From a virus (lineage: Duplodnaviria > Heunggongvirae > Uroviricota > Caudoviricetes), in IMG/VR virus record IMGVR_UViG_2529292751_000001, positions 1-61,734 of that record: 61,734 nucleotides of DNA; one strand, given 5' to 3'. Below, piece after piece: positions 1 to 19,997 of this stretch; position 1 is the stretch's first letter; each line of letters begins with the position of its first letter. The notes under the pieces were generated by a model, which did not search any database, was not told where the DNA came from, and saw only the letters and a program-made list of their open reading frames with translations. Both the position numbers and the translations under genes were made by a program.

Positions 1-1
1 C

Positions 2-2186: not shown

Positions 2187-2273
2187 GAAACAACACCTCT
2201 TGTTTTCTTATAATTTTTACACTACTGCAAATCTTTTGCTTAAGTGTTTATATGATAAAAGACATATAGTCTT

Positions 2274-3029: not shown

Positions 3030-3037
3030 ACTGCCAC

Positions 3038-3553: not shown

Positions 3554-3561
3554 CCTTTCTA

Positions 3562-4560: not shown

Positions 4561-4561
4561 A

Positions 4562-4996
4562 TTACCACCCCTCTAGTGAGAAGTTTTTATATGTGTACTC
4601 AACTGCGTATCTACGAACCTCATCTTCCATATCTTTATCGAGTTTAGATAGTTCTTTTAAATATGTAGTACCCTGTACAGCCTTAAAATCTCTGTCACCA
4701 ACTGTTTTACTCATTAAGTCGGCACTATTTTTCTTAGTAGATAACCAAGCTCTTTTCATGCCAAGTGCTAAAATAAATTGCTCTTGAGAACTTAAGTCCT
4801 CCGCAAATTCACCTATACCATTTTCTTCAACAATGTTTTCTAAGTCTTTTTTGCATTGAGGAAAATATAAGCTTCTAGCTGTATCAAGAAAACCAAAGAG
4901 AACTTCGCTTAGTTCGTCATCCCCAAGCAAGCCAAATTCATAGTCATCGATAGAAGCTAGAAACTTTTTATAAATAGAATCAAAAGATGTCGCCAC
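4562..4996 (-). CDS. Putative head-tail adaptor
   Basis: 144 aa helical protein (MATSFDSIYKKFLASIDDY) downstream of capsid genes. Confidence 0.6.
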   Translation of the reverse strand: MATSFDSIYKKFLASIDDYEFGLLGDDELSEVLFGFLDTARSLYFPQCKKDLENIVEENGIGEFAEDLSSQEQFILALGMKRAWLSTKKNSADLMSKTVGDRDFKAVQGTTYLKELSKLDKDMEDEVRRYAVEYTYKNFSLEGW

Positions 4997-5010
4997 TGCA
5001 ACACCCCCTA

Positions 5011-5646
5011 TTAAATTTCAATTTCATCATCGATTTCAGTTTCTTCTGCATCATCGAATAGGTCTTCGTTAACATATCCTTCGATTACTTTCATCTTCGT
5101 GTAATCTCCGAACTCATCAAGTTTGAATAGTTTAACAGATGTTTCAATTACTTTAGCGCGCAATTTAGGACTCATAGATTCCATGACTTCCTTAAATTTC
5201 TTCGCACTTGTTCTCTGAATGAAGTTTTTGATAGCGTCTGGGTCAGCATCTCCATTGGACAGCGCATATAACTCATCGTATATTTTAGTCAATCCAAGGT
5301 ATCCAAGGACATCTTCTAGCGTATATTCTGGGTCTAATACCTCTGTGATAATGATTGAGAAACCTTCCAAGTTTTTTCTACCAGAGTTAGCTAGTGCTCG
5401 TAAATCACCTACTGAAACTTCTGTTTCATCGCCATGTTTCTCCATGTCAATGCGTTCAGTCATTCTAGCATTCTCATAGAAGAATTGACCAAATGAATTA
5501 TTCACGACAATACACATAGTATCTCGGTCTACATTTACGCGTCTTCGAACTGGTTTCTTTTCTAGTCGTTCACGATTCTGTCTTTCATTTGATTGAAAGC
5601 GCCCTTTCGGCTTACGATTGCTGTTGCTATAATTACGTTTTTCCAT
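5011..5646 (-). CDS. Conserved phage protein downstream of major capsid gene
   Basis: Start refined to ATG 5646 after GGGAGAG RBS; SPbeta-like synteny. Confidence 0.65.
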   Translation of the reverse strand: MEKRNYSNSNRKPKGRFQSNERQNRERLEKKPVRRRVNVDRDTMCIVVNNSFGQFFYENARMTERIDMEKHGDETEVSVGDLRALANSGRKNLEGFSIIITEVLDPEYTLEDVLGYLGLTKIYDELYALSNGDADPDAIKNFIQRTSAKKFKEVMESMSPKLRAKVIETSVKLFKLDEFGDYTKMKVIEGYVNEDLFDDAEETEIDDEIEI

Positions 5647-5766
5647 AACACAACTCTCCCTCTCTTTGTGCAATACTTTTGTTTAATTATAGAGGGGCTA
5701 CATAATTTAACCCCTCTATAATAGAATATCACAAACTCCTAAAGTCTGCAATACTTTTGTTTAAAA

Positions 5767-6750
5767 CTATTGGATTTTGTACATTCCGTAAACTGCAGAA
5801 CGAACTACACCAAGACCGAATTTCTTCATTAATTGGTGTTCCATTTGTTGGTCGTTACGCGCTCCTGCTTCAGCAGTTTCAAGCATAATAGACTCACCCT
5901 CAACAACAACCTTGATTAATTTTTCCCCTTGAGGAACAACTAATAACATGTTGTCGTCTACAGCGAATTCTTCTGTACCAACTTTGTACGCTTGTGGAAG
6001 TAAGATTAAATCAGTTCCAGAGAACGTACCGATGTAACCAACTTGGTTCATCTTGTCTTTCATACCATCTGAAAGGTCTAACGCTTTAGAAATCTTACGT
6101 AGAGCTTTCTTAGTTCCCATAACAACAGCTTTCTTCCCAGACTTCGTTTCAACATGTTGAATCATGCTGAATAACTTGTCTTCATCGTAAGCTCCAGTTA
6201 CACCGAAAGTAGCATTTAGTGTAGTGTAAGACTTAGCGATACCTTCATAGATACGAGTACCCATGTCGTTAACGTAAGATTGAGCAATGCGGTCAACCAT
6301 AGCAGTCCAATCCACTAAACCAGCGATGAACATCTCAAGCTCAGAGTAGATTTTAGTACCGAACCAGTCAGTATCTACAGTGAAGTTACCGTTTAGTAAT
6401 TTCTGTCTACGGAAGTCGTTGTTTCCGCCTGCTACGCGCGAGATACGGAATAGAGACTTATCTTCAACAGTAAATACTAATTTGTCGCCAGTAGCGATAT
6501 TGCGTACTTCTGCTAAGCTATCAAATTGGTTTGTTACAATGATTCCAGTTACTACGTCTACTGCTTCTGTGATAACGCGGAATAATTTATATTTATTTTC
6601 TTGGTAGTTGTAGAAATTAAATTCTCCACCTACTGCATCAAGAATAATATTGCGAAGTGCATCTTCGCCTGTTACATTATTAAATTTAACGTTTTTGCCT
6701 TGATATACATCTAAAGCTAAACGCTGTAATTCAGTCATTTTTGCTTTCAT
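5767..6750 (-). CDS. Major capsid protein
   Basis: 327 aa; size, position after protease/scaffold and decoration genes, HK97-like sequence character (FTVDTDWFGTKIYSELEMF, GYIGTFSGTDLILLPQ), strong RBS GGAAGGTGA. Confidence 0.85.
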   Translation of the reverse strand: MKAKMTELQRLALDVYQGKNVKFNNVTGEDALRNIILDAVGGEFNFYNYQENKYKLFRVITEAVDVVTGIIVTNQFDSLAEVRNIATGDKLVFTVEDKSLFRISRVAGGNNDFRRQKLLNGNFTVDTDWFGTKIYSELEMFIAGLVDWTAMVDRIAQSYVNDMGTRIYEGIAKSYTTLNATFGVTGAYDEDKLFSMIQHVETKSGKKAVVMGTKKALRKISKALDLSDGMKDKMNQVGYIGTFSGTDLILLPQAYKVGTEEFAVDDNMLLVVPQGEKLIKVVVEGESIMLETAEAGARNDQQMEHQLMKKFGLGVVRSAVYGMYKIQ

Positions 6751-6864
6751 AAAGCGTATTCACCTTCCGTTGTTAAATATAGTTTTTATTTTTTTACAGG
6801 AGCTACCCCGAACCTACTATTCTTTCACTTCTGGAGTTACAGGAGGAGTAGGTTCATTAGTAAT

Positions 6865-7308
6865 TCACTTAGTAGAAATGCGGATAACAGCTAATTCTCC
6901 TGCATACATGTCTTTATCGATAGCGATAATTTCACCATGTAAACCTGCAGGCGTACCAACCTTAAATCCATTAGCATCAGGAACTACAAGAGCGCCTTTT
7001 GCTAGAGCGCCAGAAACGCCTTTCTTTTCAATAGAGATAATATCCCCTTCTTCAAGAACGAATCCACGACCAACTTTTCCTTTTTCAAGAACGAAGTCTA
7101 GTTCATTTTGGCGTTCCCAGTAAGTTAATGGTACAGAAGCGTGGAATACTAATTTCTTAGTTACATCTCCAGATGGAGTAACTTTTCGAGCCTCTCCGTC
7201 AGCTTCTAATGCTCCAAGAGCAACGAATTGACCATTTACTAAATCTACATCAGCGATGATAGATTCTAAGTGAGCAGTTGATTTAATCTTGTCTAAACGA
7301 ACGTACAC
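6865..7308 (-). CDS. Capsid decoration/cement protein
   Basis: 147 aa beta-rich protein (DLVNGQFVALG, GKVGRGFVLEEGDIIS) between scaffold and capsid genes; ends in TGA with an in-frame extension (see findings). Confidence 0.7.
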   Translation of the reverse strand: MYVRLDKIKSTAHLESIIADVDLVNGQFVALGALEADGEARKVTPSGDVTKKLVFHASVPLTYWERQNELDFVLEKGKVGRGFVLEEGDIISIEKKGVSGALAKGALVVPDANGFKVGTPAGLHGEIIAIDKDMYAGELAVIRISTK

Positions 7309-7336
7309 TAATATGCACCCTTTCTAATCTTCTAAA

Positions 7337-8707
7337 TTATTTTGTGAAATATGTTGATAGCGAACCATACGGTAGATTTGCATCTGTATTAGTTGCATGA
7401 ACACGATTTCGAGTCTCTTGCGTATTAGCAGAGAATTTGTCTTTCTTAAGAAGCATGAATCCAATTTCTTTCTCAATTTCTACAAGAGAGAAAGTAGCTA
7501 GGTTTGCTTCAATCGCCTCAAACTCATCCTTAGATAAAGCAGACGCATAACTAGCAAGCTTGTCTTTCTTCTCAGCCAATTCAACATTAGCTTTGAAAGT
7601 ACGAAGTTCATCAGCTTCATCTGTTAAAGTCTGATACTTAGCTTTTAAATCAGCTAATTCAGCCTCTACAGCTTCAAACTTTTTCTTCTCCTCGTCTTCT
7701 TTAGACTTGTCAGCTTTAGACTTCTTCTCGTCCTCATCTTCCTCATCATCAGAAGCAAACTTTTTCTTTTCGTCCTCTTCTTCGTCCTCAGACTCACCAG
7801 ATTTAGAAGCTTTTTTAGCCTCTTTCTCTTTTTCATCTTCGTCATCATCAGCGAACTTTTTCTTAGCCTTCTCTTTTTCTTCTTCCTCTTTTGCCTTAGC
7901 TTTCGCTTCTTCATCATCGGAAGTAGCTTCTGGAGATTTAGCTTTTGCTTTCTCAGCCTCTAATTTCTTTTTCTCTTCCTCATCCTTCTTAGCGAAGTCT
8001 GGGTTAGTATTCAGTTTTGTCAAAGTTACACCACCTTCGGAATTGTTATCTGCAGAGAAGTAACTATTAAACTCTGCAAGCATTTCTTTCATCTCAGATT
8101 TAACACTGTTAGCAACTGAGAATTTCTCAACGGTACTTGACACCATAGCAGGAGTAACTCCTTCACCTAAGATGCAAGCGCCTTCAAATTTAGCTTGTGT
8201 AAACACGAATAAGCCCTCATCGTCAAGGTAACCCTTGATACTTGAAGGGGCTAATTCCATAGACTGTGACTTGAAACCACCGTCTCTATCGAAAATCTCA
8301 GATATCTCCTTGAACTTATTCCAAAGGATTCCGTTAACTACGAGATATTCTCTTTCAATGCCATCTTCACCATACTTGGTTTCGAATCTAGCATTGTTTG
8401 CCTCTGGAATTACACCATAGGCATGACCAACATACTTGATGTTAAATTCTCCATTTTCAATTACAAGTCGCTCTTCGTGACCTGCAAAGTCAGTGCCAAT
8501 ATCTTCTGTTGGAGTTAAGTATCCAAGGATAGGCACATTGGCTAATGATGGAATCATAGATTCTAAAACCTGCTTTGAGAAAATGGAGTTGTTTCTGTTT
8601 TCACCAACATGTGCAATCCAGATTTTCACTGTCATGAATCTGTCATCTAGAACATTTTTTATCTGTTCAAATTTAATTGGTAGACTAGTATTAACTAATT
8701 TCACCAT
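7337..8707 (-). CDS. Prohead protease fused to scaffold domain
   Basis: N-terminal VKIWIAHVGENRNNS...SQSMEL...FEGACILG protease-like domain; C-terminal highly charged K/E/D repeats and coiled coil; start refined to ATG 8707 after GGGTGGTG RBS. Confidence 0.8.
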   Translation of the reverse strand: MVKLVNTSLPIKFEQIKNVLDDRFMTVKIWIAHVGENRNNSIFSKQVLESMIPSLANVPILGYLTPTEDIGTDFAGHEERLVIENGEFNIKYVGHAYGVIPEANNARFETKYGEDGIEREYLVVNGILWNKFKEISEIFDRDGGFKSQSMELAPSSIKGYLDDEGLFVFTQAKFEGACILGEGVTPAMVSSTVEKFSVANSVKSEMKEMLAEFNSYFSADNNSEGGVTLTKLNTNPDFAKKDEEEKKKLEAEKAKAKSPEATSDDEEAKAKAKEEEEKEKAKKKFADDDEDEKEKEAKKASKSGESEDEEEDEKKKFASDDEEDEDEKKSKADKSKEDEEKKKFEAVEAELADLKAKYQTLTDEADELRTFKANVELAEKKDKLASYASALSKDEFEAIEANLATFSLVEIEKEIGFMLLKKDKFSANTQETRNRVHATNTDANLPYGSLSTYFTK

Positions 8708-8721
8708 TTCACCACCCTTCA

Positions 8722-10257
8722 CTATTCAGCATCTTTAATACGAACAGTGGTATCAGTTGGTTTTTCTGATTGCGGTCTCCCCTTCTCTTTTTCTTGAGCT
8801 TCATTTCCGCTCATTGTATGAGAAGTTTGTTTCGCAATCATAAGGTCATCAATCGTTAAGATTTGCTGTTCAAAGACTAGCATTGTAGCAAATTCTAATG
8901 GAGTCATTCCGCAATAAGCTAGATACTCCATACGAGAACCACCAAACGAAAGTTGGTCTTTAGCAGTCTTAATTGCTTCATCTCTATCAAAGTGTGAAAT
9001 GTTTAAGAATTTCGCTTTCCAAATGACTGTCTTTTTACTTGCCTTTCTTAGCTCATAATTGTAATAATTGGTGAACATAGGAAGTAAGAAGCTATACAGC
9101 CATTGGCAATCTACTTGAATAGAACGTTCTAAAGCTTGAGAACTAGAATTGTCATCAGCGAATAGCTGAGGCGATACACCTGCGCCCTTATAAAGTTGCT
9201 CAGATGTTTTATCTAGCAACGAGAACTTACCATCTTTACCAGTCCCATTAAGCGTAATACCTCTCGTATCGAAAGGATTCGTAATCGCTACAGAACCTTC
9301 TGGCAAACTCTTTTTTAGAGCATTATGATATTCGTGAACTACTGGAAGCTCCATTAAAGGTCTTCCTTTGTCATCAGTTTCAATTTTAGAATGGACAATT
9401 TTGGAGTTATCAAGTTTATCTGTATCTTCCATTTTGTCTTTCGCATTCTCAATTTTGATTGCATCGATAAGAGCATTTGCAATAGGTGGTAAAGCCATAC
9501 CTCCGTTAGCTAAAACATCAGTATCGATTGTGAATGCTACACCTTTGTCCGATACTTGATACCATCGTCCGTCAATCAATTTTTCAGTTTGACCATTTTT
9601 ATAAGACGTATAAGCGTTCTGCAACTCTTTTGGGAATACCTCAAAGTTAGCATCAGAAATCTTTGTTACGTCAAATTGGAATCGATATACACCATCTTCT
9701 TCGTATCCGACACGACAGAAAGCTGTAGGAATATCTTGATAAACAACACCCTTTGAATCTTCCAATTTATACTGATATGTAACACCAGTAGTGAACAGTT
9801 TCTCTGTAAATATTGGGAGATTGTATTTAGGATTTAGCCTATCTAGAAAGATAGCTGTTTGAATAAAAGATTCCTGCGTTTTCTTAATATCGCTAGATTT
9901 AATCTTCATAGGATTCGTAAGAACTGGGTAAAGAACATGGTCGAACGTTAGTAAGCTACTCATATACTTGATGATTCGCTTATACATACCGTTGACCTGT
10001 TTCATAGAAGACGATAGCCCTGCAACTTGTACAGCGCTCTTAGCAGGGTCTTGAAGCATTGTCTTGAGACGAGATTCGCTCATACCTCTTGCTCCATTAT
10101 TACCGCCACTAGAGCCTTTAAAGTTTGCTGAGGCTGATGCGAACTTAGAATGTTCTAGCATCGAATTTGACTTCTCGCTATTATTATTCTTGCGTCTTCG
10201 CTTGTAATAGTTGTTAGTATTACGATTATTCAACGCTTCTTCACCTACCATAAGCAA
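8722..10257 (-). CDS. Portal protein
   Basis: 511 aa between terminase and protease; C-terminal KGRP motif; start uncertain (possibly later TTG). Confidence 0.8.
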   Translation of the reverse strand: MLMVGEEALNNRNTNNYYKRRRKNNNSEKSNSMLEHSKFASASANFKGSSGGNNGARGMSESRLKTMLQDPAKSAVQVAGLSSSMKQVNGMYKRIIKYMSSLLTFDHVLYPVLTNPMKIKSSDIKKTQESFIQTAIFLDRLNPKYNLPIFTEKLFTTGVTYQYKLEDSKGVVYQDIPTAFCRVGYEEDGVYRFQFDVTKISDANFEVFPKELQNAYTSYKNGQTEKLIDGRWYQVSDKGVAFTIDTDVLANGGMALPPIANALIDAIKIENAKDKMEDTDKLDNSKIVHSKIETDDKGRPLMELPVVHEYHNALKKSLPEGSVAITNPFDTRGITLNGTGKDGKFSLLDKTSEQLYKGAGVSPQLFADDNSSSQALERSIQVDCQWLYSFLLPMFTNYYNYELRKASKKTVIWKAKFLNISHFDRDEAIKTAKDQLSFGGSRMEYLAYCGMTPLEFATMLVFEQQILTIDDLMIAKQTSHTMSGNEAQEKEKGRPQSEKPTDTTVRIKDAE

Positions 10258-11996
10258 TATTGAAGTAAGTCATCGTTTCCACCAGTTTTTAAGATATCGT
10301 TCTCTAATAGAGTTGCTACATAGTTTCCATATCCAATAGAGGAGTATCTATCCTTTGTAGTTGTTCCGACTTCTTTAATTTTGATGTAACCACTTCTAAC
10401 TTCATAAACAAGGTTAACAAGCTCATTCGTTAAAGCAGTTGTCTGCAGAAACGGTCTAAGCATATGAACCTGTTCTTCTGTTGTTTTCTTCATATAACCC
10501 TTACGTTCAATTAGCTCTTCCTTCGCTTCAATATCATTGATAAGTAAGCGAATTTTTCGCTTCTCAAAGGCGATTCGTAATCCAGTAGCAACCTTATGGT
10601 TTAGCTCAGAATTACCTTTAATTGAGTAGATGATTGGAATGGCGTTAGGGTCAATTTTACGCTCATCCATTGCCTCATCATTAATTACTGTCCAAGCAGG
10701 ATATTCTTCATCTCTATCTTTGTCATAGAGTATTTTTGTACAAGAATCATAGATTGCTATACCGTTACCATTTGTATCCATGCCAACAAAGTCAGCTTCG
10801 AAATCATAGAATAGTTGTTTCAATCTAATTGCTTGGAGTTCGGCATGTTGTCCTGCCATACTCTCTAAATACACAACATCGCGCCTAAATTCTTCGCCTT
10901 GTGGCAATAATCTCATTAGCGTGAAAGCAGTTGTATCATTCTTAACCGATTTACTGCTACCCATCAAGGCAATATCCATACTTACGATACGGATTTCTCC
11001 TGCCTGCTTAGGCATGTTCGTAAGTTTCTTTCTGCTACCCTTATTCTCTACATACTCTCGGTCTGTAGGAGGATAGAAAGGTTTAGGAAGTGTTCTACAC
11101 TTCTGGATATCATCTAATTTGTAGTAAGCGTTCTCATTTTCACCAACAAAAAGCGCCTCATACTCCATGTCCCAACTCATCTGGTCAAAGTCTTCTTCTG
11201 TTCTCTGTTGCTCTACACGCTTCCTAGATAGGAGCTTGTGGAATACAGATAACTGCCAAGGCAGTACAGCAACGAAGTAATCTTTTCCTGCCATCATTTG
11301 TTTTAAATACGAATTAAAAGATTCATATATCCAATGATTCTTATACCACGCTGAAGAGATATAAATTTCCTTATTCTCTTCTTCTAAGTGTTGGTATTTA
11401 GGATTTGCTAGGTAAGGTGGAGTACGGTTTACGTTCAAGAATGGACGTAAAATAGTATCGATTGTTTCTTTTGATATCAACCTAAACTCGTCAACTATTA
11501 ATATATTAGCGCGATAACCGCGAGCCGAGTCACCGCTCGTAACCGCAGTAATCTTAGAACCGTTAAAGAAGACTACGTAACATTCATTTGCACTAGTCTT
11601 AAACTCTTTAATCTCTCGTTCTACGTTTTTAGAGTTGTTTTTCAGAGCAAATATCTTCTCTGTAATGATTAATCTCGCCTGCCCTTTTGTACCAGATGCA
11701 AGCACGATATTAGAGCCTGGAAAAAGTATAGCCCTAATTACACAGTAAACTGCGATTAGGTAAGACTTCCCTTGTCCGCGCGCCGCCAAATACATAAAGA
11801 AACCATAGTGGTTCATAGCCCACAACAAAATCTTTTGATATAGGAACAAGTGTATTCCGAGATAATCCTTTGCAAATCTCTGTGGATTTGCTCTATAGAA
11901 CGATGTCCATAATTTAAAGCCATCTCTCAGCTTATCTGTTTTCGTTTTTGATTCTTGGGATTTTTTAGTAACCTTAGACATATTAGTCTTCACCAT
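10245..11996 (-). CDS. terL: Terminase large subunit
   Basis: Walker A AARGQGKS, Walker B ILIVDEF, ISSA motif III, RNase H-like nuclease (SMDIA, MDTNGNG, KDRYSS). Confidence 0.93.
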   Translation of the reverse strand: MVKTNMSKVTKKSQESKTKTDKLRDGFKLWTSFYRANPQRFAKDYLGIHLFLYQKILLWAMNHYGFFMYLAARGQGKSYLIAVYCVIRAILFPGSNIVLASGTKGQARLIITEKIFALKNNSKNVEREIKEFKTSANECYVVFFNGSKITAVTSGDSARGYRANILIVDEFRLISKETIDTILRPFLNVNRTPPYLANPKYQHLEEENKEIYISSAWYKNHWIYESFNSYLKQMMAGKDYFVAVLPWQLSVFHKLLSRKRVEQQRTEEDFDQMSWDMEYEALFVGENENAYYKLDDIQKCRTLPKPFYPPTDREYVENKGSRKKLTNMPKQAGEIRIVSMDIALMGSSKSVKNDTTAFTLMRLLPQGEEFRRDVVYLESMAGQHAELQAIRLKQLFYDFEADFVGMDTNGNGIAIYDSCTKILYDKDRDEEYPAWTVINDEAMDERKIDPNAIPIIYSIKGNSELNHKVATGLRIAFEKRKIRLLINDIEAKEELIERKGYMKKTTEEQVHMLRPFLQTTALTNELVNLVYEVRSGYIKIKEVGTTTKDRYSSIGYGNYVATLLENDILKTGGNDDLLQYCLW

Positions 11997-12843
11997 CTAG
12001 CTTAACTATGTCTTCATCTTTAATCATTCCGAATACACGCTTAATTTGCGTTACGAACCATCGTTCAACGTATTTCTTAATACCGTCAACGTCTCTTAGG
12101 TCTTCGGATGCTTCTGGAATAGGCTCTGTTTCCTCAATTTTCTTTACCCAAGAACCCCAGTCATTTAATCCGTTGTCTTGGGCGTTACCCATGTCTTGGA
12201 CTGGTTTTAAGTTAGCATCGTTCATCTGTTTCGATAAAGTATTCATTAACTTTTCGAACTTACCAACGTCACCGTCATCTAATGCGGTATTTGCTAACCA
12301 TTGAGTACGTGCCATATTCTTATAGATGTTCTCTTGGATTGGGGTATCGCATCCATAGGCGATTGCGAGTCTATCGAACTCTTCTTGCAGGAACATATAA
12401 TCGTCCTTTTGCAAGTTTCTTCCCCATCTCTTGACAATAGTTTCGGTTACCTCGAAATCTTCATATTCGATTTCGGTCAGTTCGGCTCTATTTGTTCTTC
12501 CTGTTAAATCATCACTATCTTTGAATCTCTTCTCTTGATTCTGCTTGAGTGAATTGATATTTTTGAAGTAAGTGCCGACTGTCTCTGTACTAGCGTCATT
12601 CGCTACTTTCCATTGTGATTTAAAATACGGAATATCCATTGTCCGTAAAAAATCAACCATTGTGTCCATGTCGTCTAAATCGACATTCTCTTTCACACAT
12701 TTTTTACAGAATCCAAATCTTTCATTTATTAACGGATTCCTGTGTGAATAAAAAGAAGAAACCGCATATTCTTTACCGCATTTCAAACAAGTCTTTTTTC
12801 CCGATGGCTGTCGCGCCATACACATCACCGCCTTGTGAAACAC
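11983..12843 (-). CDS. Putative terminase small subunit-like protein with N-terminal Zn finger
   Basis: CLKC...FCKKC Zn motif; immediately upstream of and overlapping terL. Confidence 0.6.
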   Translation of the reverse strand: MFHKAVMCMARQPSGKKTCLKCGKEYAVSSFYSHRNPLINERFGFCKKCVKENVDLDDMDTMVDFLRTMDIPYFKSQWKVANDASTETVGTYFKNINSLKQNQEKRFKDSDDLTGRTNRAELTEIEYEDFEVTETIVKRWGRNLQKDDYMFLQEEFDRLAIAYGCDTPIQENIYKNMARTQWLANTALDDGDVGKFEKLMNTLSKQMNDANLKPVQDMGNAQDNGLNDWGSWVKKIEETEPIPEASEDLRDVDGIKKYVERWFVTQIKRVFGMIKDEDIVKLDGED

Positions 12844-12874
12844 GAATAAAAGGAAAGGAGATTACTCCCCTTCC

Positions 12875-13315
12875 CTAAATGTTTTCTGCAATTTTTATTA
12901 CATCTGTTAATGCGTCATAAACAGATTCTAGTTTTAATTCAATTCTAAATTTACTACCACTACCAAAGTGTTCTTTAACCTCTTGCGGTAAGTAATGCGG
13001 TAGAATCATAATGTCTGACTCATGGTCAATGTATTTCTTATGAATTCCTTTGATATCATCTGCATAGAAAGCATTGCCTTCTTCTCCAATATCAGAGGTA
13101 ATAAGAAAATATTCTTCAGCGCCTAAATCAATTCCCTTTTCATCATATAATGATAGGTCGATTACTTTTAAAAGCTCGAATGTATCATTTTTATCTAAGA
13201 CAATTGCAATATTGCGCTTTGTTTCTCCATATGGATGTCCACCAATGAAGTAAGCGATATGCTCCATCGCTATTTTATGTGAGTCTACTGGCATTTCATA
13301 TTTAACTTGGTTCAC
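12875..13315 (-). CDS. Hypothetical protein
   Basis: 146 aa ORF, co-directional, overlaps upstream ORF. Confidence 0.65.
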   Translation of the reverse strand: MNQVKYEMPVDSHKIAMEHIAYFIGGHPYGETKRNIAIVLDKNDTFELLKVIDLSLYDEKGIDLGAEEYFLITSDIGEEGNAFYADDIKGIHKKYIDHESDIMILPHYLPQEVKEHFGSGSKFRIELKLESVYDALTDVIKIAENI

Positions 13316-13505
13316 CGTTAAGCAACCTCCCTGCTTCTAAATGATAAGAAGATTCTGCAATGTTTTTCTGCATTTCAACATATCGTTGCATATCAGAGAT
13401 TTGTTTAATATCAATGTTTTCATGACTCTTAATGTCATTAATTTTCCCTTGAACGAATTCCCAGTTTGAATTTAGGGACTCTTGTTTTGTTTTAATGTCT
13501 TTCAT
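13302..13505 (-). CDS. Hypothetical protein
   Basis: 67 aa ORF with GAGAGAGGG RBS. Confidence 0.6.
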   Translation of the reverse strand: MKDIKTKQESLNSNWEFVQGKINDIKSHENIDIKQISDMQRYVEMQKNIAESSYHLEAGRLLNGEPS

Positions 13506-13532
13506 GTCTATGTTCCCTCTCTCTCAATAAGA

Positions 13533-13679
13533 CATTTCTACAGTGCGTTAGGCTGTGAAGCACGAAACTTCACAAGGTAAACACAAAGGAGTGTGCGAGA
13601 ATAACGAGTGCAACTAAAGATAAATAACTTTAATACACAAAGGATTGGTGTACTACACACCCTAACGCACTGCAGAATG
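13533..13679. ncRNA. Candidate multi-hairpin ncRNA
   Basis: Perfect 12-bp inverted repeat CAGTGCGTTAGG (13541-13552)/CCTAACGCACTG (13661-13672) enclosing several small hairpins. Confidence 0.55.
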
Positions 13680-13790
13680 CTTTGGTCTAATACGATTTAA
13701 AAGACCCAAATAATAAGACCTCTCTTGGAGGAATTCAACGCACCGCATATAGCAGTGCAACACAATATTTAATTTTAAAAGAACTTACAA

Positions 13791-13861
13791 CAGGGGCTGT
13801 AGGAATCGAACCCACACTGAAGGTTTTGGAGACCTCTGTTCTACCGTTAAACTAAGCCCCT
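13791..13861 (-). tRNA. trnW: tRNA-Trp(CCA)
   Basis: AGGGGCT acceptor, GAGGT-CT CCA AA-ACCTT anticodon arm, GGTTCGATTCC T arm; 3' CCA not encoded. Confidence 0.95.
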
Positions 13862-13865
13862 AAGA

Positions 13866-13942
13866 TGGCATCCCATACAGGATTCGAACCTGCAAATCCT
13901 CGATAGAAAGTCGAGTGTGTTAGCCAATTTCACCAATGGGAC
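13866..13942 (-). tRNA. trnE: tRNA-Glu(TTC)
   Basis: Cloverleaf, CTCGA-CT TTC TA-TCGAG, encoded CCA. Confidence 0.95.
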
Positions 13943-13943
13943 A

Positions 13944-14029
13944 TGATTCGGAACGATGGATTTGAACCACCCCTTCTGTTGACAATATGTACACTTATTC
14001 AACAGATGTTCTTCGTTAAACTATTCCGC
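13944..14029 (-). ncRNA. tRNA-like RNA with extended anticodon arm (mimic or pseudo-tRNA)
   Basis: Acceptor (G)CGGAAT/GTTCCG(A), Trp-like D arm, T arm GGTGG-TTCAAAT-CCATC; anticodon arm is an 8-bp stem with a 16-nt loop. Confidence 0.7.
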
Positions 14030-14036
14030 ATAAAAA

Positions 14037-14110
14037 TGCCGACTGTAGGAATCGAACCCACGACCTGTTGCTTACAAGGCAACCGCTCTGACCTGCTGAG
14101 CTAAGTCGGC
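14037..14110 (-). tRNA. trnT: tRNA-Thr(TGT)
   Basis: Cloverleaf, GTTGC-CT TGT AA-GCAAC; CCA not encoded. Confidence 0.95.
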
Positions 14111-14183
14111 AAGAACTGAGATATTTGCCGATATCTCAGAACGACCAATTAAATATAAAATAGGAGGACTACAAATGAATAAA

Positions 14184-14255
14184 AGGGACATGAGGGAATC
14201 GAACCCTCGTCATCTGGTTGGAAGCCAGAGATAATAGCCTCTATACGAATGCCCC
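14184..14255 (-). tRNA. trnG: tRNA-Gly(TCC)
   Basis: Cloverleaf, TCTGG-CT TCC AA-CCAGA, U73; CCA not encoded. Confidence 0.93.
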
Positions 14256-14259
14256 ATAA

Positions 14260-14336
14260 TGGAGGAGAGAGTGAGATTCAAACTCACGAATAATAGGGTT
14301 GCAACCTATCGCGTTAAGCCACTTCGCCATCTCTCC
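14260..14336 (-). tRNA. trnC: tRNA-Cys(GCA)
   Basis: ATAGG-TT GCA AC-CCTAT, U73, encoded CCA; T loop TTTGAAT is atypical. Confidence 0.9.
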
Positions 14337-14339
14337 ATG

Positions 14340-14424
14340 TGGTGGGAAAGGTAGGATTCGAACCTACGAAACATAAAGTAACTGATTTACAGTCAGCCTG
14401 CTTTAACCTCTTGCATACTCGCCC
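14340..14424 (-). tRNA. trnY: tRNA-Tyr(GTA)
   Basis: GCTGA-CT GTA AA-TCAGT, long variable arm, encoded CCA. Confidence 0.93.
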
Positions 14425-14453
14425 AAATAGCGCCTATATTAAGGCGCACATAA

Positions 14454-14723
14454 TTAGTTAATTTCAATAAAGTTATTAATCTTAGCTCTAAATTGAGCAT
14501 TCATATCTTTGCCTGCTTTTGCTCTATCTACAGAGCCTTGTAAAGCATCAATTTCATTTCGCTTTTTGGCGATTTCAGATTGTGCATCTAAGATAATTGC
14601 ATCAAACTCAGCATCAGATTTCTCGACTGTTGTAATCGCATCTGAAAATACAGTTTGTGCATTCTTAAAAATACCTTCTGCCTTTGTAATCTTTGAATCA
14701 TAATTAGTTGTTCTCTTTAGCAT
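14454..14723 (-). CDS. Small coiled-coil protein inside tRNA array
   Basis: 89 aa, GGGAGAATGAGAGAG RBS region, followed by GCGCCT/AGGCGC hairpin (14430-14447). Confidence 0.75.
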   Translation of the reverse strand: MLKRTTNYDSKITKAEGIFKNAQTVFSDAITTVEKSDAEFDAIILDAQSEIAKKRNEIDALQGSVDRAKAGKDMNAQFRAKINNFIEIN

Positions 14724-14757
14724 AACTCTCTCATTCTCCCTTGTTTGCTAATTTTAA

Positions 14758-14833
14758 TGGTGCGGATGGCAGGATTTGAACCTGCGTGACCTGCGCCCCA
14801 AACGCAGTGACTGACCAACTAGCCTACATCCAC
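14758..14833 (-). tRNA. trnP: tRNA-Pro(TGG)
   Basis: CTGCG-TT TGG GG-CGCAG, encoded CCA. Confidence 0.93.
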
Positions 14834-14896
14834 ATGAATACTTGGAGTTTCAGCTTACCGTTATATTGGGCATCACTATAGTAGCCAAGCATCGTA

Positions 14897-14983
14897 AGGA
14901 GAATACAGGATTCGAACCTGTGGGAGCATTAAATCTCCACTTCTTTAGCAAAGAAGCACAATAAGCCACTCTGACAATTCTCC
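14897..14983 (-). tRNA. trnS: tRNA-Ser(GCT)
   Basis: CTTCT-TT GCT AA-AGAAG, long variable arm; discriminator U, CCA not encoded. Confidence 0.9.
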
Positions 14984-14990
14984 ATGATTT

Positions 14991-15152
14991 GCTAGATATC
15001 TTGAACCTGTGTACTAAGATATCTGAAGTTTTAACCTACTAAACAGGACTCATCCTTGTAGGAGGAAGCTTCATATCCTCATCGCTAAATAGGAACTCCC
15101 CTTAAAGTCGCTCTAGAAACATACGATAAAAGGTGAATACTTTCTATCTAGC
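14991..15152 (-). ncRNA. Candidate structured RNA between the two tRNA-Ser genes
   Basis: Terminal complement GCTAGATA/TATCTAGC enclosing hairpins GAGGA..TCCTC and CCTAC..GTAGG. Confidence 0.45.
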
Positions 15153-15176
15153 GGTCAAGATATGAATAAGGTAATG

Positions 15177-15266
15177 TGGCGGAGAGTGAGGGACTTGAAC
15201 CCCCATCGGCTTTTACACCTACGCTAGTTTTCAAGACTAGTCTCTTACCAATTAGAGTAACTCTCC
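15177..15266 (-). tRNA. trnS: tRNA-Ser(TGA)
   Basis: CTAGT-CT TGA AA-ACTAG, long variable arm, G73, encoded CCA. Confidence 0.93.
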
Positions 15267-15271
15267 ACATT

Positions 15272-15346
15272 TGGCGAGGATAACGAGATTCGAACTCGTG
15301 CTACATGGTAGACAGCCATGTGTGTTAACCACTACACTATATCCCC
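15272..15346 (-). tRNA. trnD: tRNA-Asp(GTC)
   Basis: CATGG-CT GTC TA-CCATG, encoded CCA. Confidence 0.95.
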
Positions 15347-15448
15347 AAGGTTGTTCTAGCCACCACAGCTAGAACAGGAGGTAGGAGGTTTTAAAATGAA
15401 CCAAGATTAAGGTGATTATCGATTGGCTTAAACCAATGTCAAATCATA

Positions 15449-15545
15449 TGGAGTTCTGTAGGTGGGAATCGAACCCACATGACAATCATAGGTACTCGCT
15501 TTTAATTAAGCTCTTACTGGATATTGTCGCTGACCTTCACAGAAC
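15449..15545 (-). ncRNA. 97-nt tRNA-like RNA (acceptor stem, T arm and CCA; no D arm or anticodon arm)
   Basis: GTTCTGT(G)/(T)ACAGAAC-T-CCA, GTGGG-TTCGATT-CCCAC; middle is an irregular long helix GACAAT..ATTGTC. Confidence 0.7.
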
Positions 15546-15549
15546 ATAA

Positions 15550-15626
15550 TGGCGTGTCTAGATGGACTCGAACCATCGACCCTCCGCTTAACAGGCGGAT
15601 GCTCTAACCAACTGAGCTACAGACAC
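15550..15626 (-). tRNA. trnN: tRNA-Asn(GTT)
   Basis: TCCGC-CT GTT AA-GCGGA, encoded CCA. Confidence 0.95.
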
Positions 15627-15708
15627 GTAATGCGGATAGTACCGTTCCTATCCGCAAGACATATAACATATATAGTAGGAGGAAAATACATGTCGAGAAA
15701 AAACAAGC

Positions 15709-15754
15709 AGGTTGCAACTGGACTTGAACCAGTTATTATCCAACGAGGACAACC
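15709..15754 (-). ncRNA. Mini tRNA-like element (acceptor-like stem plus T arm only)
   Basis: GGTTGT/GCAACC stem enclosing a 14-nt linker and AACTGG-TTCAAGT-CCAGTT. Confidence 0.4.
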
Positions 15755-15757
15755 ATG

Positions 15758-15785
15758 AAAAGAAGCCACGCCAATCAGCATGACT
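15758..15785 (-). terminator. Intrinsic terminator after HU gene
   Basis: AGTCATGC-TGATTG-GCGTGGCT followed by TCTTTT. Confidence 0.65.
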
Positions 15786-15834
15786 CCTTGGGTATGTTTT
15801 GGAGAACAATGTCTCCAGTTATGTTTGTTTTAAA

Positions 15835-16104
15835 TTAGAATTTACGTAATGATTTTGCTAATTTAGCAGATGCTTTACGGTGTGCAGGAACAACGATTTC
15901 TTCACCAGTTTGAGGATTACGAGCAGTTCCTTGTGCAACTTCTTTTGATACAAATGAAGCTAAACCTTTAAGTTCTACATCTTCTCCGCGAGTTACAGCG
16001 CCAACAATTACTTCTTTAAAAGCATCGAAATGTGCCTTTGCGTCTTTCTTAGTTCCACCTGTAATTTCTGCCATTGCGTTTACTACTTCTGTTGTTTTCA
16101 TCAT
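15835..16104 (-). CDS. hup: HU-family DNA-binding protein
   Basis: ARNPQTGEEIVVPA arm motif; start refined to ATG 16104 after AAGGGGAG RBS. Confidence 0.92.
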   Translation of the reverse strand: MMKTTEVVNAMAEITGGTKKDAKAHFDAFKEVIVGAVTRGEDVELKGLASFVSKEVAQGTARNPQTGEEIVVPAHRKASAKLAKSLRKF

Positions 16105-16186
16105 AATTTGATATCTCCCTTTCTCTCTCATTCCATTATGAGATTTAATAAAATATTTGTTTTATTAGTTTTTTAATAATTTTGTT

Positions 16187-16258
16187 TGAGCCAAAGGTGG
16201 GAATCGAACCCACTCTACCACCTTGCGATGATAAGCCTTCCATTTACTTCTCTTCGGC
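16187..16258 (-). ncRNA. tRNA mimic with GCAA tetraloop replacing the anticodon loop
   Basis: GCCGAAG/CTTTGGC acceptor, AAGT/GCTT D stem with GG loop, TCATC-GCAA-GGTGG arm, GTGGG-TTCGATT-CCCAC T arm, 3' TCA. Confidence 0.75.
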
Positions 16259-16260
16259 AT

Positions 16261-16290
16261 AATAAAAAGCCCAAGCTAGGAGACTTGGGC
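16261..16290 (-). terminator. Intrinsic terminator-like hairpin directly 5' of the tRNA mimic
   Basis: GCCCAAG-TCTCCTAG-CTTGGGC followed by TTTTTATT. Confidence 0.7.
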
Positions 16291-16438
16291 AAATTTGAGA
16301 TACAACGATTTAGGAGGCAATCATTAATTGCTAAGTTTTTAAATCAGTTTAACCACTTCTGCAAATCTTTTGCTTAGTGGCTTACACTATATATAGCAGT
16401 AGCCTCCGAAATAGTTCGTATCATTTCTCATATTTTTT

Positions 16439-17497
16439 TTATTTATTTTTGATGGCAATTTTATAAAGCTCTTTAACATAGAATTCTGCTGACTTTTTAG
16501 CGATTCGTGTAATCGTTTCGGAAACAGTATTCTTCTTGATTCCTAGCAACTCTTCCAGTTCTTCTTGTGCATATCCCTGTCTGAATGAGTCAACAATACT
16601 TTGCTCACGAACAGTCAGAACCATTCTATCTAGCATTCTATTGTAGTCGTAGATGATAAGACCTAGTCCATCCTCATCCATCATATCTTCTCTATTAAGC
16701 ATTCTCAGAAGCTCTTTGTTATTTACAATATCAGAGAAATCAATGGCATCTAACTTGTTTGCCACGCCCTCATCCTTAAGCAGATTCTTAAATTCTATAG
16801 GACGCTTGATAGCCTTTTTAATAGCAATCTGGTTATCTTTCGCCTCGCGAATCCAACGAGTTACATAGCCTTTTACGTTTTTGCGAATTTTTAGGAGTCT
16901 CGCACGAGCTTCTTCATCCATTATAATAGGAAGAGATGCGTCAATTCGATTTTCAATCATCTTTACAAACGAGTCGTCTCCTGCCTTTTCGACTAGGTCT
17001 TGTAATCTACCAATCTCTACTATCTCCCTAATATCCTTAGAAAGAATGCTCATACCCTTAACTATCTTCTGATTCTTATCTTCATTAGAATAGAACATGT
17101 CGAATACTTCTACTTCTGAATTGCCCTCTCCAGTTTCGAATGCTGAAGCTACAACGTTCTCAGACTCTTTATATTGTTTGAATTCTCTCTCACTCTTCCA
17201 GAATCGGTACTCTACCTTTCTGTTAGTATCAATATCTTTTGCATTAAGAAGATATGTACCTAGCATCTCTAACGTTCGACATACAGCATCCTGCTCAGCC
17301 ATCCAACCTTGTTGTGTTGGGCTTACATCGTAATATTCACCAAAGTATGTAGAGAAGAATTCATGCACATTCCCTTCCCCATCACCAATTACTTCATTTA
17401 TTACTTCTAATCTATCACCGAATTTTTCAACAGAATAATCCTGCTGTTGGAAATCCACCAATTTTTTACCTGCAATTGAACTACTGAAGTACTTCAC
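16439..17497 (-). CDS. Phage protein with C-terminal sigma-region-4-like HTH (putative transcription factor)
   Basis: 352 aa; C-terminal LTVREQSIVDSFRQGYAQEELEELLGIKKNTVSETITRIAKK; GTG start with GGAGAG RBS. Confidence 0.7.
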   Translation of the reverse strand: MKYFSSSIAGKKLVDFQQQDYSVEKFGDRLEVINEVIGDGEGNVHEFFSTYFGEYYDVSPTQQGWMAEQDAVCRTLEMLGTYLLNAKDIDTNRKVEYRFWKSEREFKQYKESENVVASAFETGEGNSEVEVFDMFYSNEDKNQKIVKGMSILSKDIREIVEIGRLQDLVEKAGDDSFVKMIENRIDASLPIIMDEEARARLLKIRKNVKGYVTRWIREAKDNQIAIKKAIKRPIEFKNLLKDEGVANKLDAIDFSDIVNNKELLRMLNREDMMDEDGLGLIIYDYNRMLDRMVLTVREQSIVDSFRQGYAQEELEELLGIKKNTVSETITRIAKKSAEFYVKELYKIAIKNK

Positions 17498-17702
17498 GTT
17501 TCATCTCTCCTTGTGCTTTTCTGTATGTTTTCATCTTTGTAATAAATCTTGCTGTTGCTCTCATTTCTCTTTCTCGCTCAACGTCGTCATACATCTTATC
17601 TAGCTCGCCACTTAGATATAATGCATTCACTTCATCTGTTGATAGTGTCGCTAGATAATTCTCTAACGGACGGTATGAACAGAATCCTCTTATCATTTCC
17701 AT
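17481..17702 (-). CDS. Hypothetical protein
   Basis: 73 aa, RBS AAGGAG, coupled to downstream gene. Confidence 0.6.
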   Translation of the reverse strand: MEMIRGFCSYRPLENYLATLSTDEVNALYLSGELDKMYDDVEREREMRATARFITKMKTYRKAQGEMKREVLQ

Positions 17703-17841
17703 ACTTTTGTTTAGCTCCTTTGTTTAAATTCACCTTTGTTTTATTCGCCTTTGTGTGTATATCATATAACATTCATTTATTTTCTGCAATACTTTTGTTT
17801 AATGCAGAACTAGCCAGAAGCTCAAGGCTTCTATAGGCTTA

Positions 17842-18231
17842 TTACATCTTTGGTTCTTTAAGAGTTCCCATTTTTTCAAGCTCACCAATTGCTTTTAGAT
17901 ATGTCTCTCTATCCATTCTAAGCTCTTTATGGAATACTTCTTTCCCATACTCATCTCTTTTAACAGACTTATTTGTATTTCTATCTGTAGAACGGTATGC
18001 AAAAATCATTTCGTACATTCTCTCAGTTGGTGTCTGTATATATTCAATCAACTTTTGTACTAGCACTCCACTTGGTGCGCTTCTATTGCCAATACAGTTC
18101 ATATAGTAGTTATAATTAACCTCGAAAACATCCGTAAATTCTCTCTTAGATACGTTTTCTGCAGTACGTTTAATTTCTCCTAATCGAAGAATTTCTCTTC
18201 CATCCATTGTTTCTAATAAATTCATTTGCAA
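17842..18231 (-). CDS. Putative XRE-like HTH regulator
   Basis: 129 aa; SKREFTDVFEVNYNYYMNCIGNRSAPS resembles an HTH; ACGGAGG RBS and own promoter with GTGTNACAC box. Confidence 0.55.
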   Translation of the reverse strand: MQMNLLETMDGREILRLGEIKRTAENVSKREFTDVFEVNYNYYMNCIGNRSAPSGVLVQKLIEYIQTPTERMYEMIFAYRSTDRNTNKSVKRDEYGKEVFHKELRMDRETYLKAIGELEKMGTLKEPKM

Positions 18232-18284
18232 TTCCTCCGTTAACCTTATGTGTTATAGTGTTAGTGTAACACAATCACACTAGA

Positions 18285-18734
18285 TTAACAACCGCTTTTT
18301 TGAATTACTTTTCTTAATTCCTCAATTTCCTTCTCGCGGTTCTTTATCTCCTTCTCAGCCTTAACTTTAATTCCTTTTAATATAATGAATCTGAGATTCT
18401 CCATTATATATAGAAACTTCTCATCATCAAGGAAACTGGCGTATATCTCATTTGCGATGATATGACTAATCTTATGCATGATGAAATCGTCTTTACTATT
18501 ATGATAAGGAAGCTCATCATAGTCTTCTCTGGACATTGGATATACAGAATCTACGAATTTATAGAATCCGTCTTCCATATCATATACGCCTGCAAGGTCG
18601 ATAATTTCAAATACACGTTTAACTCGCGTATCTTTTAAGTCTCGATATTCATCCATGAAAGTTGCCCATAGTTCCAATATCTCATCTTTCTTCTGTTTGT
18701 ATTGCTCTGTCGTGCCATTTTTAATTACTGCCAA
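18285..18734 (-). CDS. Hypothetical protein
   Basis: 149 aa, GAGGTGG RBS. Confidence 0.7.
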   Translation of the reverse strand: MAVIKNGTTEQYKQKKDEILELWATFMDEYRDLKDTRVKRVFEIIDLAGVYDMEDGFYKFVDSVYPMSREDYDELPYHNSKDDFIMHKISHIIANEIYASFLDDEKFLYIMENLRFIILKGIKVKAEKEIKNREKEIEELRKVIQKSGC

Positions 18735-19505
18735 CTATTCCACCTCATTAATAGGATTGTTATTTCTATCTAATACTTGGATATAATGAGTTTCATTGCT
18801 ATAGCCTAGCTTATCCATAGCATCTTTTATATAGACAAAAATCGATTTCGCGCTATCCCCTACTCTCCAGTAGAAGTTATGTGTCTTAGAAATGCTTTTA
18901 TTCTTAACCTGCTTTTTGGCTGTGAATCTCATTTTTCTAAAATCGATAACATTGAGTTCATCTTTTAATATATAGATGTATTTTGATACAGTCTTGTCGC
19001 TAATACCTGTTTCTAACTGAATTGTTCCTTGAGAAATCCAAGACACCTTGCAACTTGATTCGCTCTCAAATATAGGAGATACGATACTAGCGTACACTGA
19101 GAATACTCCGAACTTCTTCTTCTTATCCAGTGTCATAAATTTCTTGATAATATCCACATCAAACATTGTGAAGTATCCACCCTTGTTAGGCTCTACCATT
19201 CTAATAAAGTATAGTGTAGAAGGCTTCATCTTAGATGCCTCTATCCTGCACATTTCCGCTTGGTCTTCGTATACTTCAATAAATTGATGAACTTCTAGAT
19301 TGGTAACGAATCCTTTCATCTTAGATTTATTCCTACTATCTGAGTGATTCATTCCCATCTGTTTGAGAAGGTTTACGATACTAACTGTAGCAGAGCCAGT
19401 TGGATTATTGGCTCGAATGACAGCGTATGTAAATTTCTCTTCTGATGTAATTTCTTCGTGCTTGATTAGGGAGTCGCTAATTTTAATAAAGTTATTATGT
19501 TTCAA
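18735..19505 (-). CDS. Two-wHTH Rep-like DNA-binding protein
   Basis: 256 aa; N-terminal EEKFTYAVIR.. and C-terminal SQGTIQLETGISDKTVSKYIYIL HTH-like segments; TTG start with AAAGGAG RBS; adjacent to palindrome array. Confidence 0.6.
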   Translation of the reverse strand: MKHNNFIKISDSLIKHEEITSEEKFTYAVIRANNPTGSATVSIVNLLKQMGMNHSDSRNKSKMKGFVTNLEVHQFIEVYEDQAEMCRIEASKMKPSTLYFIRMVEPNKGGYFTMFDVDIIKKFMTLDKKKKFGVFSVYASIVSPIFESESSCKVSWISQGTIQLETGISDKTVSKYIYILKDELNVIDFRKMRFTAKKQVKNKSISKTHNFYWRVGDSAKSIFVYIKDAMDKLGYSNETHYIQVLDRNNNPINEVE

Positions 19506-19644
19506 ATTCTATCGAATTCTCCTTTCCTGCAATATTTTTGCTTAAAGTGCAAAGTCGAAAGCGCTACTGCGCGTGACTATGCACTTATCTCTCTCTTCTT
19601 AATATGGTTCTCCTCTGCTTAAATGGTTCTCTTTTATTAGACCC

Positions 19645-19997
19645 CCAGATTTACACCAATAGGGGGTGTATATTTCCGCCCACCTATCGGAGATTTACAC
19701 CCCCTATTGGTGTAAAATTCCGTATACCCTCGGAGATATACACTAGTAAGGGGTGTAAATCTCCGTATAGGTTAACTTATGAATAAATTCTAACAGAGAA
19801 TATGATATTCTGCAATACTTTTGTTTAATGGGATGCGTTTCAGTAGTGGGAAAAGAGCGCCACCGCGCGACCCCACTACTATCTCTCTCTGCTTCGTCTG
19901 GTTCTCTTATTATTAGACCCCCACATTTACACCCTCTAGTGGTGTAAATCTCCGTATGGTATACGGAAATACGCACCCCTAGAGGGTGTAAATCTCC
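19645..19997. repeat. Five 33-bp palindromes GGAGATTTACACC-N7-GGTGTAAATCTCC (origin-like array)
   Basis: Copies at 19645-19677, 19689-19721, 19732-19764, 19921-19953 and 19965-19997; 43-44 bp period within each cluster. Confidence 0.9.

Follow-up and report, generated by a model that had tools for sequence, protein, structure and literature searches.

Conserved CCUCCU motifs in the tRNA array of an SPbeta-like Bacillus phage: candidate Shine-Dalgarno-complementary RNA modules

The spacers of a transfer RNA (tRNA) array were analysed in a stretch of 61,734 nucleotides (nt), here called the window, which comprises positions 1 to 61,734 of the IMG/VR phage record IMGVR_UViG_2529292751_000001. 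The tRNA genes lie on the - strand, and their spacers carry the heptamer CCUCCUA in the sense of the tRNA transcript. This heptamer is the exact complement of UAGGAGG, the form of ribosome binding site preferred by the + strand genes of the phage, and appears as TAGGAGG on the + strand. The pattern is real, non-random and conserved among relatives of the phage. Its conserved and strand-biased component is CCUCCU on the transcribed tRNA strand, where the motif is predicted to be unpaired. The most likely reading, which we hold tentatively, is that the array contains RNA modules complementary to the Shine-Dalgarno (SD) sequence, which may act as generic anti-SD RNAs.

An earlier sequence-only reading had counted five + strand copies of TAGGAGG within 2.2 kb (positions 14161, 15059, 15382, 15676 and 16311), where about 0.1 is expected on one strand, and the count was confirmed. 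Over the window TAGGAGG occurs 16 times, on the + strand every time. Shuffled versions of the window contained 4.6 ± 2.3 copies on both strands, and 16 copies were reached in none of 100 shuffles. At three of the five array sites an ATG follows after a gap of exactly 7 nt (14175, 15396 and 15690), as reported before. TAGGAGG-N7-ATG has seven occurrences in the whole 126-kb genome, three in the tRNA array and four at real + strand genes. The open reading frames (ORFs) that begin at the array ATGs are as trivial as had been stated: MNQD followed by a stop, 22 codons, and 19 codons antisense to tRNA-Gly. The four hairpins described earlier fold on the tRNA-sense RNA (14116-14139, 15352-15376, 15631-15656 and 16269-16290), and the fifth site, 15059, also has a hairpin after the motif (14994-15024), so that all five sites are accompanied by one.

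Relatives were collected by terminase-anchored searches of IMG/VR. Among them, tRNA arrays were confined to a clade of at least 75% terminase identity, which comprises a 93%-identical genome and eight other lineages. Eleven loci of this clade, some of them near-duplicates and together representing eight to nine distinct lineages, contributed 11 kb of non-tRNA, non-ORF spacer. CCTCC was found there 56 times on the tRNA strand versus 3 times for GGAGG, with about 0.4 of each expected per locus. The 13-mer CCTCCTACCTCCT directly 5' of tRNA-Asp is invariant in every lineage with tRNA-Asp, while its flanks, the hairpin and the tRNA itself vary. In the spacer 5' of tRNA-Asn, CCUCCUCCU-type tracts occur across lineages. 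Another ACCUCCU(U), with no start codon after it on the opposite strand, lies between hairpin and tRNA-Asn 5' end in three lineages. The three best sites recur unaltered in the 93%-identical relative. The array itself is a mosaic, its tRNA content, hairpins and spacers being swapped between lineages. A scan of IMG/VR for the 13-mer plus T loop returned L128 (the L013 record), already known as a relative, along with two high-GC contigs that are unrelated, and no new lineage. Derivation of the motif from the host was rejected, because CCTCC is not enriched in host DNA or in host tRNA operons, the spacers of which have a single copy in 1059 nt. Two unrelated Bacillus phage arrays likewise showed no enrichment, each having a single CCTCC in a leader hairpin loop.

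The assignment to the tRNA strand is supported by predicted accessibility. In the sense RNA the motifs were predicted to be unpaired at 0.72, compared with 0.47 outside the motifs in these spacers (62 motifs, p = 2e-7). Further signals specific to this strand are the U tails that follow hairpins in many lineages and the presence, in some hairpins of the Asn spacer, of G-U pairs that are available only in the sense RNA. The + strand micro-ORFs, which had been called trivial, are not conserved: they span 1-34 codons and are unrelated between lineages, and a 1-nt indel in the 93%-identical relative leaves only 8 codons of the 22-codon ORF. The earlier statement that the transcribed strand carries CAU-N7-CCUCCUA is correct for the three window sites, and its CCUCCU part is the strand-biased and conserved one. 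The CAU is less general, being present at the spacing in 16 of 44 sites. Its enrichment is nevertheless significant: an ATG 6-9 nt from GGAGG would be expected at about 7% of the clade sites (2.5; p = 2e-8), and CAT is the sole outlier among trinucleotides at this spacing.

In the order of transcription the tRNA genes are Asn, Asp, Ser, Ser, Pro, Tyr, Cys, Gly, Thr, Glu and Trp (Table 1). Sites 14161, 15059, 15382 and 15676 each have a tRNA or tRNA-like element of the same strand on either side, and no conserved promoter was found at these four. A UUAU-type leader precedes nearly every tRNA or mimic, as in the host; such leaders and the 3' hairpins are compatible with release of the spacer RNA. 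The motif at 15676 is identical in the 93%-identical relative despite altered flanks, other lineages have motifs in the equivalent spacer, and the hairpin of this spacer shows a compensatory change from C-G to A-U in the close relative. The hairpins before tRNA-Asp differ in sequence between relatives, several of them having a UUUUA tail. Overall, U tails were seen at hairpins before tRNA-Asp or tRNA-Asn in L012, L013, L015, L016 and L049. In the window, the hairpins at 15352, 15631 and 14116 have no good U tract, and the hairpin that qualifies as an intrinsic terminator is that at 16269-16290. The spacer containing 15059 is lineage-specific; tRNA-Gln takes its place in the close relative, and a scan of IMG/VR found no further copy. 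The Gly/Thr spacer of the close relative has diverged, yet the CCUCC tract CCCUCCUUA and the hairpin are kept. At the place equivalent to the multi-hairpin region behind the last tRNA, relatives have paired CCUCC motifs.

Three further observations were made on the array. The degenerate tRNA-like element at 15700-15790 (-) is about 20% different from its counterpart in the otherwise 93%-identical relative, with the adjacent CAU-N7-CCUCCUA unchanged; judged from the sequences, the element is evolving faster than its surroundings. tRNA-Asp (15272-15346, -) has the anticodon loop C-U-G-U-C-U-A and thus a pyrimidine (U) at position 37, which is normally a purine in tRNAs. In L023, the most distant of the relatives with an array, the spacer before tRNA-Asn (about 4900-5100) contains about six AT-rich, iteron-like direct repeats of the TTTATTTACAACAT type, which are absent from the window.

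Table 1. Features of the tRNA array and of its leader in the window
Feature	Position	Strand	Basis or remark
Leader small-RNA unit (predicted), ~125 nt	16259..16387	-	directly 5' of tRNA-like element
Predicted extended -10 (TGCTATATA) of leader small RNA	16390..16398	-	read from sequence
Intrinsic terminator hairpin, then UUUUUAUUAU tail; loop with UCUCCUA	16269..16290	-	terminator scan, fold
11 tRNA genes	13790..15626	-	ARAGORN, Rfam tRNA matches
Gene of 89 amino acids (aa) interrupting tRNA array	14454-14723		ORF list
CAU-N7-CCUCCUA (complementary to an initiation region), spacer 5' of tRNA-Asn	15676..15692	-	
Hairpin, 4 nt 5' of tRNA-Asn	15631..15656	-	fold z-score -4.4
CAU-N7-CCUCCUACCUCCU, double motif 5' of tRNA-Asp	15376..15398	-	13-mer invariant across tRNA-Asp-bearing lineages
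Hairpin adjoining double motif, 5 nt 5' of tRNA-Asp	15352..15376	-	fold
CCUCCUA in 193-nt spacer between two tRNA-Ser genes	15059..15065	-	hairpin 14994-15024 follows
CAU-N7-CCUCCUA, tRNA-Gly/tRNA-Thr spacer	14161..14177	-	
Hairpin, 4 nt 5' of tRNA-Thr	14116..14139	-	fold
tRNA-like element, 3' end bounds Asp spacer	15449..15545	-	T-arm sequences visible; no ARAGORN call
Further tRNA-like elements	16187-16258, 13944-14029; degenerate one ~15700-15790	-	no ARAGORN call
Multi-hairpin region 3' of last tRNA, with UCCUUU and CCUCC motifs	13533..13760	-	repeats

Site 16311 had been regarded, like the others, as part of a spacer released by ribonuclease (RNase) P/Z. It lies instead inside a predicted small-RNA unit that extends from promoter to terminator. 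This leader unit is located between a sigma-like gene and a tRNA-like element in each of the nine lineages with an array, also in L023, which lacks CCTCC (2800-2922 in L011, 1368-1487 in L016 and about 4300-4420 in L023). It consists of a 5' hairpin, the unpaired CCUCCUA (16311-16317) in the hairpin loop 16303-16326, and the terminator, with a fold z-score of -4.6. The structure was derived from folds made sequence by sequence, in which the arms of the 5' hairpin covary between lineages; RNAalifold on a MAFFT alignment of the unit predicted no pairs, the alignment being poor. The C-rich motifs of the leader (CCUCC and/or UUCCCC) had a probability of being unpaired of at least 0.85 in all lineages. 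The -10 is kept in all lineages as well, with the TG in five of nine, and terminators equivalent to that of the window were found in relatives. The leader CAU sits in the conserved segment UCAUAAUGAUUG, which persists in lineages that have lost CCUCC. The predicted layout of the unit is that of a Firmicutes small RNA of the RsaE/RoxS type (UCCC motif).

The tRNA-array leader of phage Zuko (L092), an unrelated member of the Herelleviridae, likewise starts with the promoter-proximal 14-mer of the leader, ATAGTGTAAGGGTT. No enrichment of the promoter-proximal 15-mer was found in host DNA or host tRNA operons. A near-palindromic AT-rich box (ACATTTTATTAAATGT and variants; about 16135-16175, -) was seen in all lineages just 5' of the GGGAG-type ribosome site of the HU-like gene 15835-16131, and may be a late promoter or operator.

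The window is the first half of a phage genome of 126,404 bp with terminal repeats in IMG/VR. The large terminase shares 47% identity with its counterparts in SPbeta and phi3T and 50% with the enzyme of Lysinibacillus phage LC76P1; the phage is SPbeta-like. A relative (L019, contig C4 of G001) fills a whole 120-kb contig of Bacillus gaemokensis KCTC 13318, which would suit either an extrachromosomal (plasmid-like) prophage or one that was assembled separately. Because the relative occupies this contig, the host probably belongs to the B. cereus group. The - strand gene block (99954-126394 plus 1-19976) includes the terminase, the HU-like gene and the sigma-like gene, and + strand genes occupy 20283-99784. 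We take the - strand block to be the late or structural block. By this layout, the tRNA array lies inside the presumed late/structural block and is co-oriented with it.

The two gene blocks differ in their ribosome binding sites. GGAGG-type SD sequences were found at 46 of 130 starts in the + block (35%) and at 4 of 42 late-block starts (9.5%; p = 0.0009), compared with 11 of 130 and 18 of 42, respectively, for SD sequences in the GGTG register. Most sites of the late block are in the GGUG, AGGGUG or GGGAG register, while overall pairing with the tail of 16S ribosomal RNA (16S) is alike in both blocks. The ratio of UAGGAGG to AAGGAGG is 15:8 in the + block and 64:112 in the host, which has the reverse preference. 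The CCUCCUA heptamer pairs slightly better with translation initiation regions (TIRs) of the + block (p = 0.002). As a correlation, the two SD dialects fit a masking of GGAGG-type sites from which late genes escape.

The array had been proposed to be a cassette of antisense regulators that pair with specific host or phage mRNAs. To search for such targets, three 19-mers were compared with 41 Bacillus genomes, which gave only scattered matches with up to 2 mismatches. One match was recurrent, to the TIR of a 73-aa gene (presumably yneF-like, judging the peptide by eye); it was at chance level and was unmirrored in the spacers of relatives. With RNAduplex, the five spacer seeds were paired with each of 2317 candidate TIRs in the phage genome, and none was an outlier. 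A Hamming search of the phage genome found best non-self matches of 17-18 of 23 positions, equal to control TIRs. Genes 12875..13315 and 17842..18231 have starts with partial similarity, which was discarded because it showed no covariation in relatives, and the HU TIR was rejected as a partner of the leader small RNA, the cognate pairing being no better than non-cognate ones. In the B. gaemokensis genome the complement of the 13-mer was found in the prophage only. Thus no TIR complementary beyond the SD plus AUG was found in the phage genome, the host genome or the 41 Bacillus genomes, and by the refuting condition set in the earlier reading itself, the specific-target part of the proposal fails. 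Specific antisense regulators are not supported by these sequence comparisons; what the spacers resemble is a consensus TIR. The other part of the proposal is retained, as the layout could yield small SD-complementary RNAs.

In our preferred reading, the functional strand would be the tRNA (-) strand, and the non-coding parts of the array would encode short RNA modules. Each module would present a single-stranded (CCU)2-4 tract complementary to the SD, followed by a stable hairpin, often with a U tail. About a third of the modules would add the complement of the start codon at canonical spacing, as a CAU 6-9 nt upstream. Module 16259-16387 is predicted to be transcribed as a stand-alone small RNA from its own promoter to its own terminator. 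The other modules may be freed by termination, by RNase P cleavage and 3' processing at the neighbouring tRNAs, or by both, with a 3' hairpin that may be protective. We infer that the freed RNAs would pair in trans, as generic anti-SD (anti-TIR) RNAs, with (U)AGGAGG-type ribosome binding sites and reduce translation by masking them. Such sites are used by the phage + strand block and by many host genes, and the GGUG-type late block would be less affected.

Several points weigh against this interpretation. Processed tRNA spacers are normally degraded. The invariance of the 13-mer exceeds what generic SD pairing needs and could reflect a protein site instead. The CAU adds little, being a 3-bp helix across a 7x7 internal loop with a small pairing energy, and ribosome geometry on the opposite strand is the more natural explanation of the 6-9 nt spacing between CAU and CCUCC. 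The two gene blocks differ only slightly in duplex energy, and not at all when the full 13-mer is used. The L023 array has no CCTCC, and the absence of a specific target also counts here.

An alternative, which is possible though not probable, is cis-acting control, in which the (CCU)n tract would be bound by an RNA-binding protein of phage or host, e.g. an antiterminator or a processing or stability factor. The protein would govern the terminator-like hairpin and thereby the read-through that reaches tRNA-Asp, tRNA-Asn and the late genes behind them. The architecture of the Asp spacer suits this, since most lineages have only 0-5 nt between motif and hairpin, and several hairpins have U tails like intrinsic terminators directly before a tRNA. 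An invariant 13-mer with a 7-nt repeat also suits specific recognition over generic pairing, and the RNA target searches found none. However, in the Asn, Thr and Ser spacers the distance between motif and hairpin varies from 0 to about 60 nt, and some motifs come after the hairpin. No candidate binding protein was found, Pfam giving no match in the neighbouring small genes, and the enrichment of CAU at 6-9 nt is left unexplained.

That enrichment is what keeps function of the + strand a live rival, because ribosome geometry explains the spacing better than pairing does; we nevertheless regard it as unlikely. Here the motifs would be real TIRs on RNAs antisense to the tRNA array, and ribosome loading on tiny ORFs would stabilize the antisense transcript or act like minigenes, e.g. 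silencing or modulating tRNA and late transcripts. Besides the ATG spacing and the lone CAT outlier, the motif shares its UAGGAGG flavour with the phage + strand genes, and a weak sigma-70-like + strand promoter lies within the antisense of tRNA-Asp. The U tract of a hairpin that lies after the HU gene and 3' of the 22-codon ORF is on the + strand. Conversely, 28 of the 44 sites keep CCUCC with no ATG at the spacing, and the ORFs have the lack of conservation described above, one of them being frameshifted between near-identical genomes. Tandem or triple motifs and motifs between a hairpin and a tRNA 5' end would make poor TIRs. No conserved + strand promoter was found, and the promoter, 5' hairpin and terminator of the leader face the opposite way.

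Two promoter candidates were rejected. A sigma-70 promoter 5' of the Asp spacer (TTGACA-16-GATAAT) was attributed to chance, since it is unconserved even in the closest relative, and no consistent -10 partner was visible for a reading of AGGAGG as an SPO1-type phage promoter. The hairpin after the HU gene (15799-15818), with its U tract on the + strand and not on the HU strand, shows compensatory changes that preserve pairing in the close relative; it looks like a terminator facing antisense transcription from the side of the tRNA array.

It is improbable that the motifs have no present function and are relics or hitch-hikers, e.g. inverted intergenic TIR cassettes or recombination microhomologies left by the shuffling of tRNA modules. 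The mosaic array and the lineage-specific 15059 spacer would agree with this, but the 13-mer is invariant amid randomized flanks, the 56:3 strand bias extends over eight lineages, and sites persist while the surrounding spacer diverges. Still less credible is a decoy of the 16S 3' end, in which a hairpin plus (C)ACCUCCU(U), 3'-terminal after RNase P cleavage in some lineages, would mimic helix 45 with the anti-SD tail and could titrate a factor or defence nuclease recognizing the ribosome 3' end: in L011, L012 and L015 a hairpin is followed by GCACCUCCU(U) directly before tRNA-Asn, a 9-nt match to the textbook 3' tail of Bacillus 16S, and relatives carry CACCUCC and CCUCCUUU motifs after the last tRNA, but the window motif CCUCCUA departs from the CCUCCUU of 16S and matches the phage UAGGAGG sites instead, the feature is absent from the Asn spacer of the window, and no such nuclease or factor has been identified.

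Binding of the SD by unpaired C-rich motifs is an established mechanism of Firmicutes small RNAs (Geissmann et al. 2009, PMC2790875). The phage modules share with the C-rich (UCCC/CCCC) anti-SD RNAs, i.e. RsaE/RoxS, other Rsa RNAs and the RNAIII hairpins, a conserved C-rich motif, predicted to be unpaired. At 16259-16387, the putative bounds of an independent transcript are the predicted extended -10 and terminator, both conserved in nine lineages. The phage modules differ from RsaE/RoxS in being phage-encoded, in lying in a tRNA array in several copies and in the motif CCUCCU(A), often with a CAU at start-codon spacing, and their SD binding is putative. An E-value search of 13000-17500 against Rfam returned tRNAs plus sub-threshold matches, and no homology to RsaE or another family. 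A toxic small RNA of Betaproteobacteria (Rfam RF02278) likewise has two hairpins with CCUCC-type motifs and pyrimidine-rich anti-SD loops. It matched weakly at 16261-16319 (-), and membership of the leader element was rejected, as the score of 23.8 bits is below the gathering score of 50 and the family comes from a different phylum.

For release from a tRNA transcript, the 3' external transcribed spacer of E. coli glyW-cysT-leuZ is the closest case. According to the account in PMC8383071, this spacer is regulatory and released on tRNA maturation (Lalaouna et al. 2015), and it sponges the small RNAs RyhB and RybB with Hfq in a proteobacterium. The four phage sites other than 16311 resemble the leuZ spacer in lying between mature tRNA ends of a polycistronic tRNA stretch; the phage motifs differ in being SD-complementary, repeated and phage-borne, and their release is putative. 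A third comparison is the RegB endoribonuclease of phage T4, by which early messages are inactivated via GGAG-type SD sequences, a motif that late genes avoid (PMC1702504). The outcome proposed here would be the same, and the two SD dialects would fit it. Unlike RegB, a protein nuclease, the agent would be a masking RNA with no cleavage implied, so that the likeness is one of analogy.

By this analogy, a wider role may be considered, although it is doubtful: the array could double as a battery of anti-TIR RNAs, expressed late, that drives a translational switch. Masking of (U)AGGAGG-N7-AUG sites would shut down phage + strand (early or accessory) genes together with many host genes, and translation of the late genes, whose SD has moved into the GGUG register of the 16S tail, would go on. 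The tRNAs and tRNA mimics would serve as processing punctuation, and the whole would be a counterpart, made of RNA, to the function of RegB in T4.

The usual view of phage tRNA arrays is limited to codon supply or a counter to tRNA-targeting defences. Here, the "spacers" are constrained more strongly than some of the tRNAs, and their motif could reprogramme the choice of messages at initiation. If a protein site or a + strand ribosome site proved to be the function instead, the motifs would still constitute an undescribed element controlling expression of the tRNA array. If the SD-complementary modules act as proposed, a temperate Bacillus phage would compactly couple tRNA supply with selective translational shut-off, and this would account for the two SD dialects in one genome.

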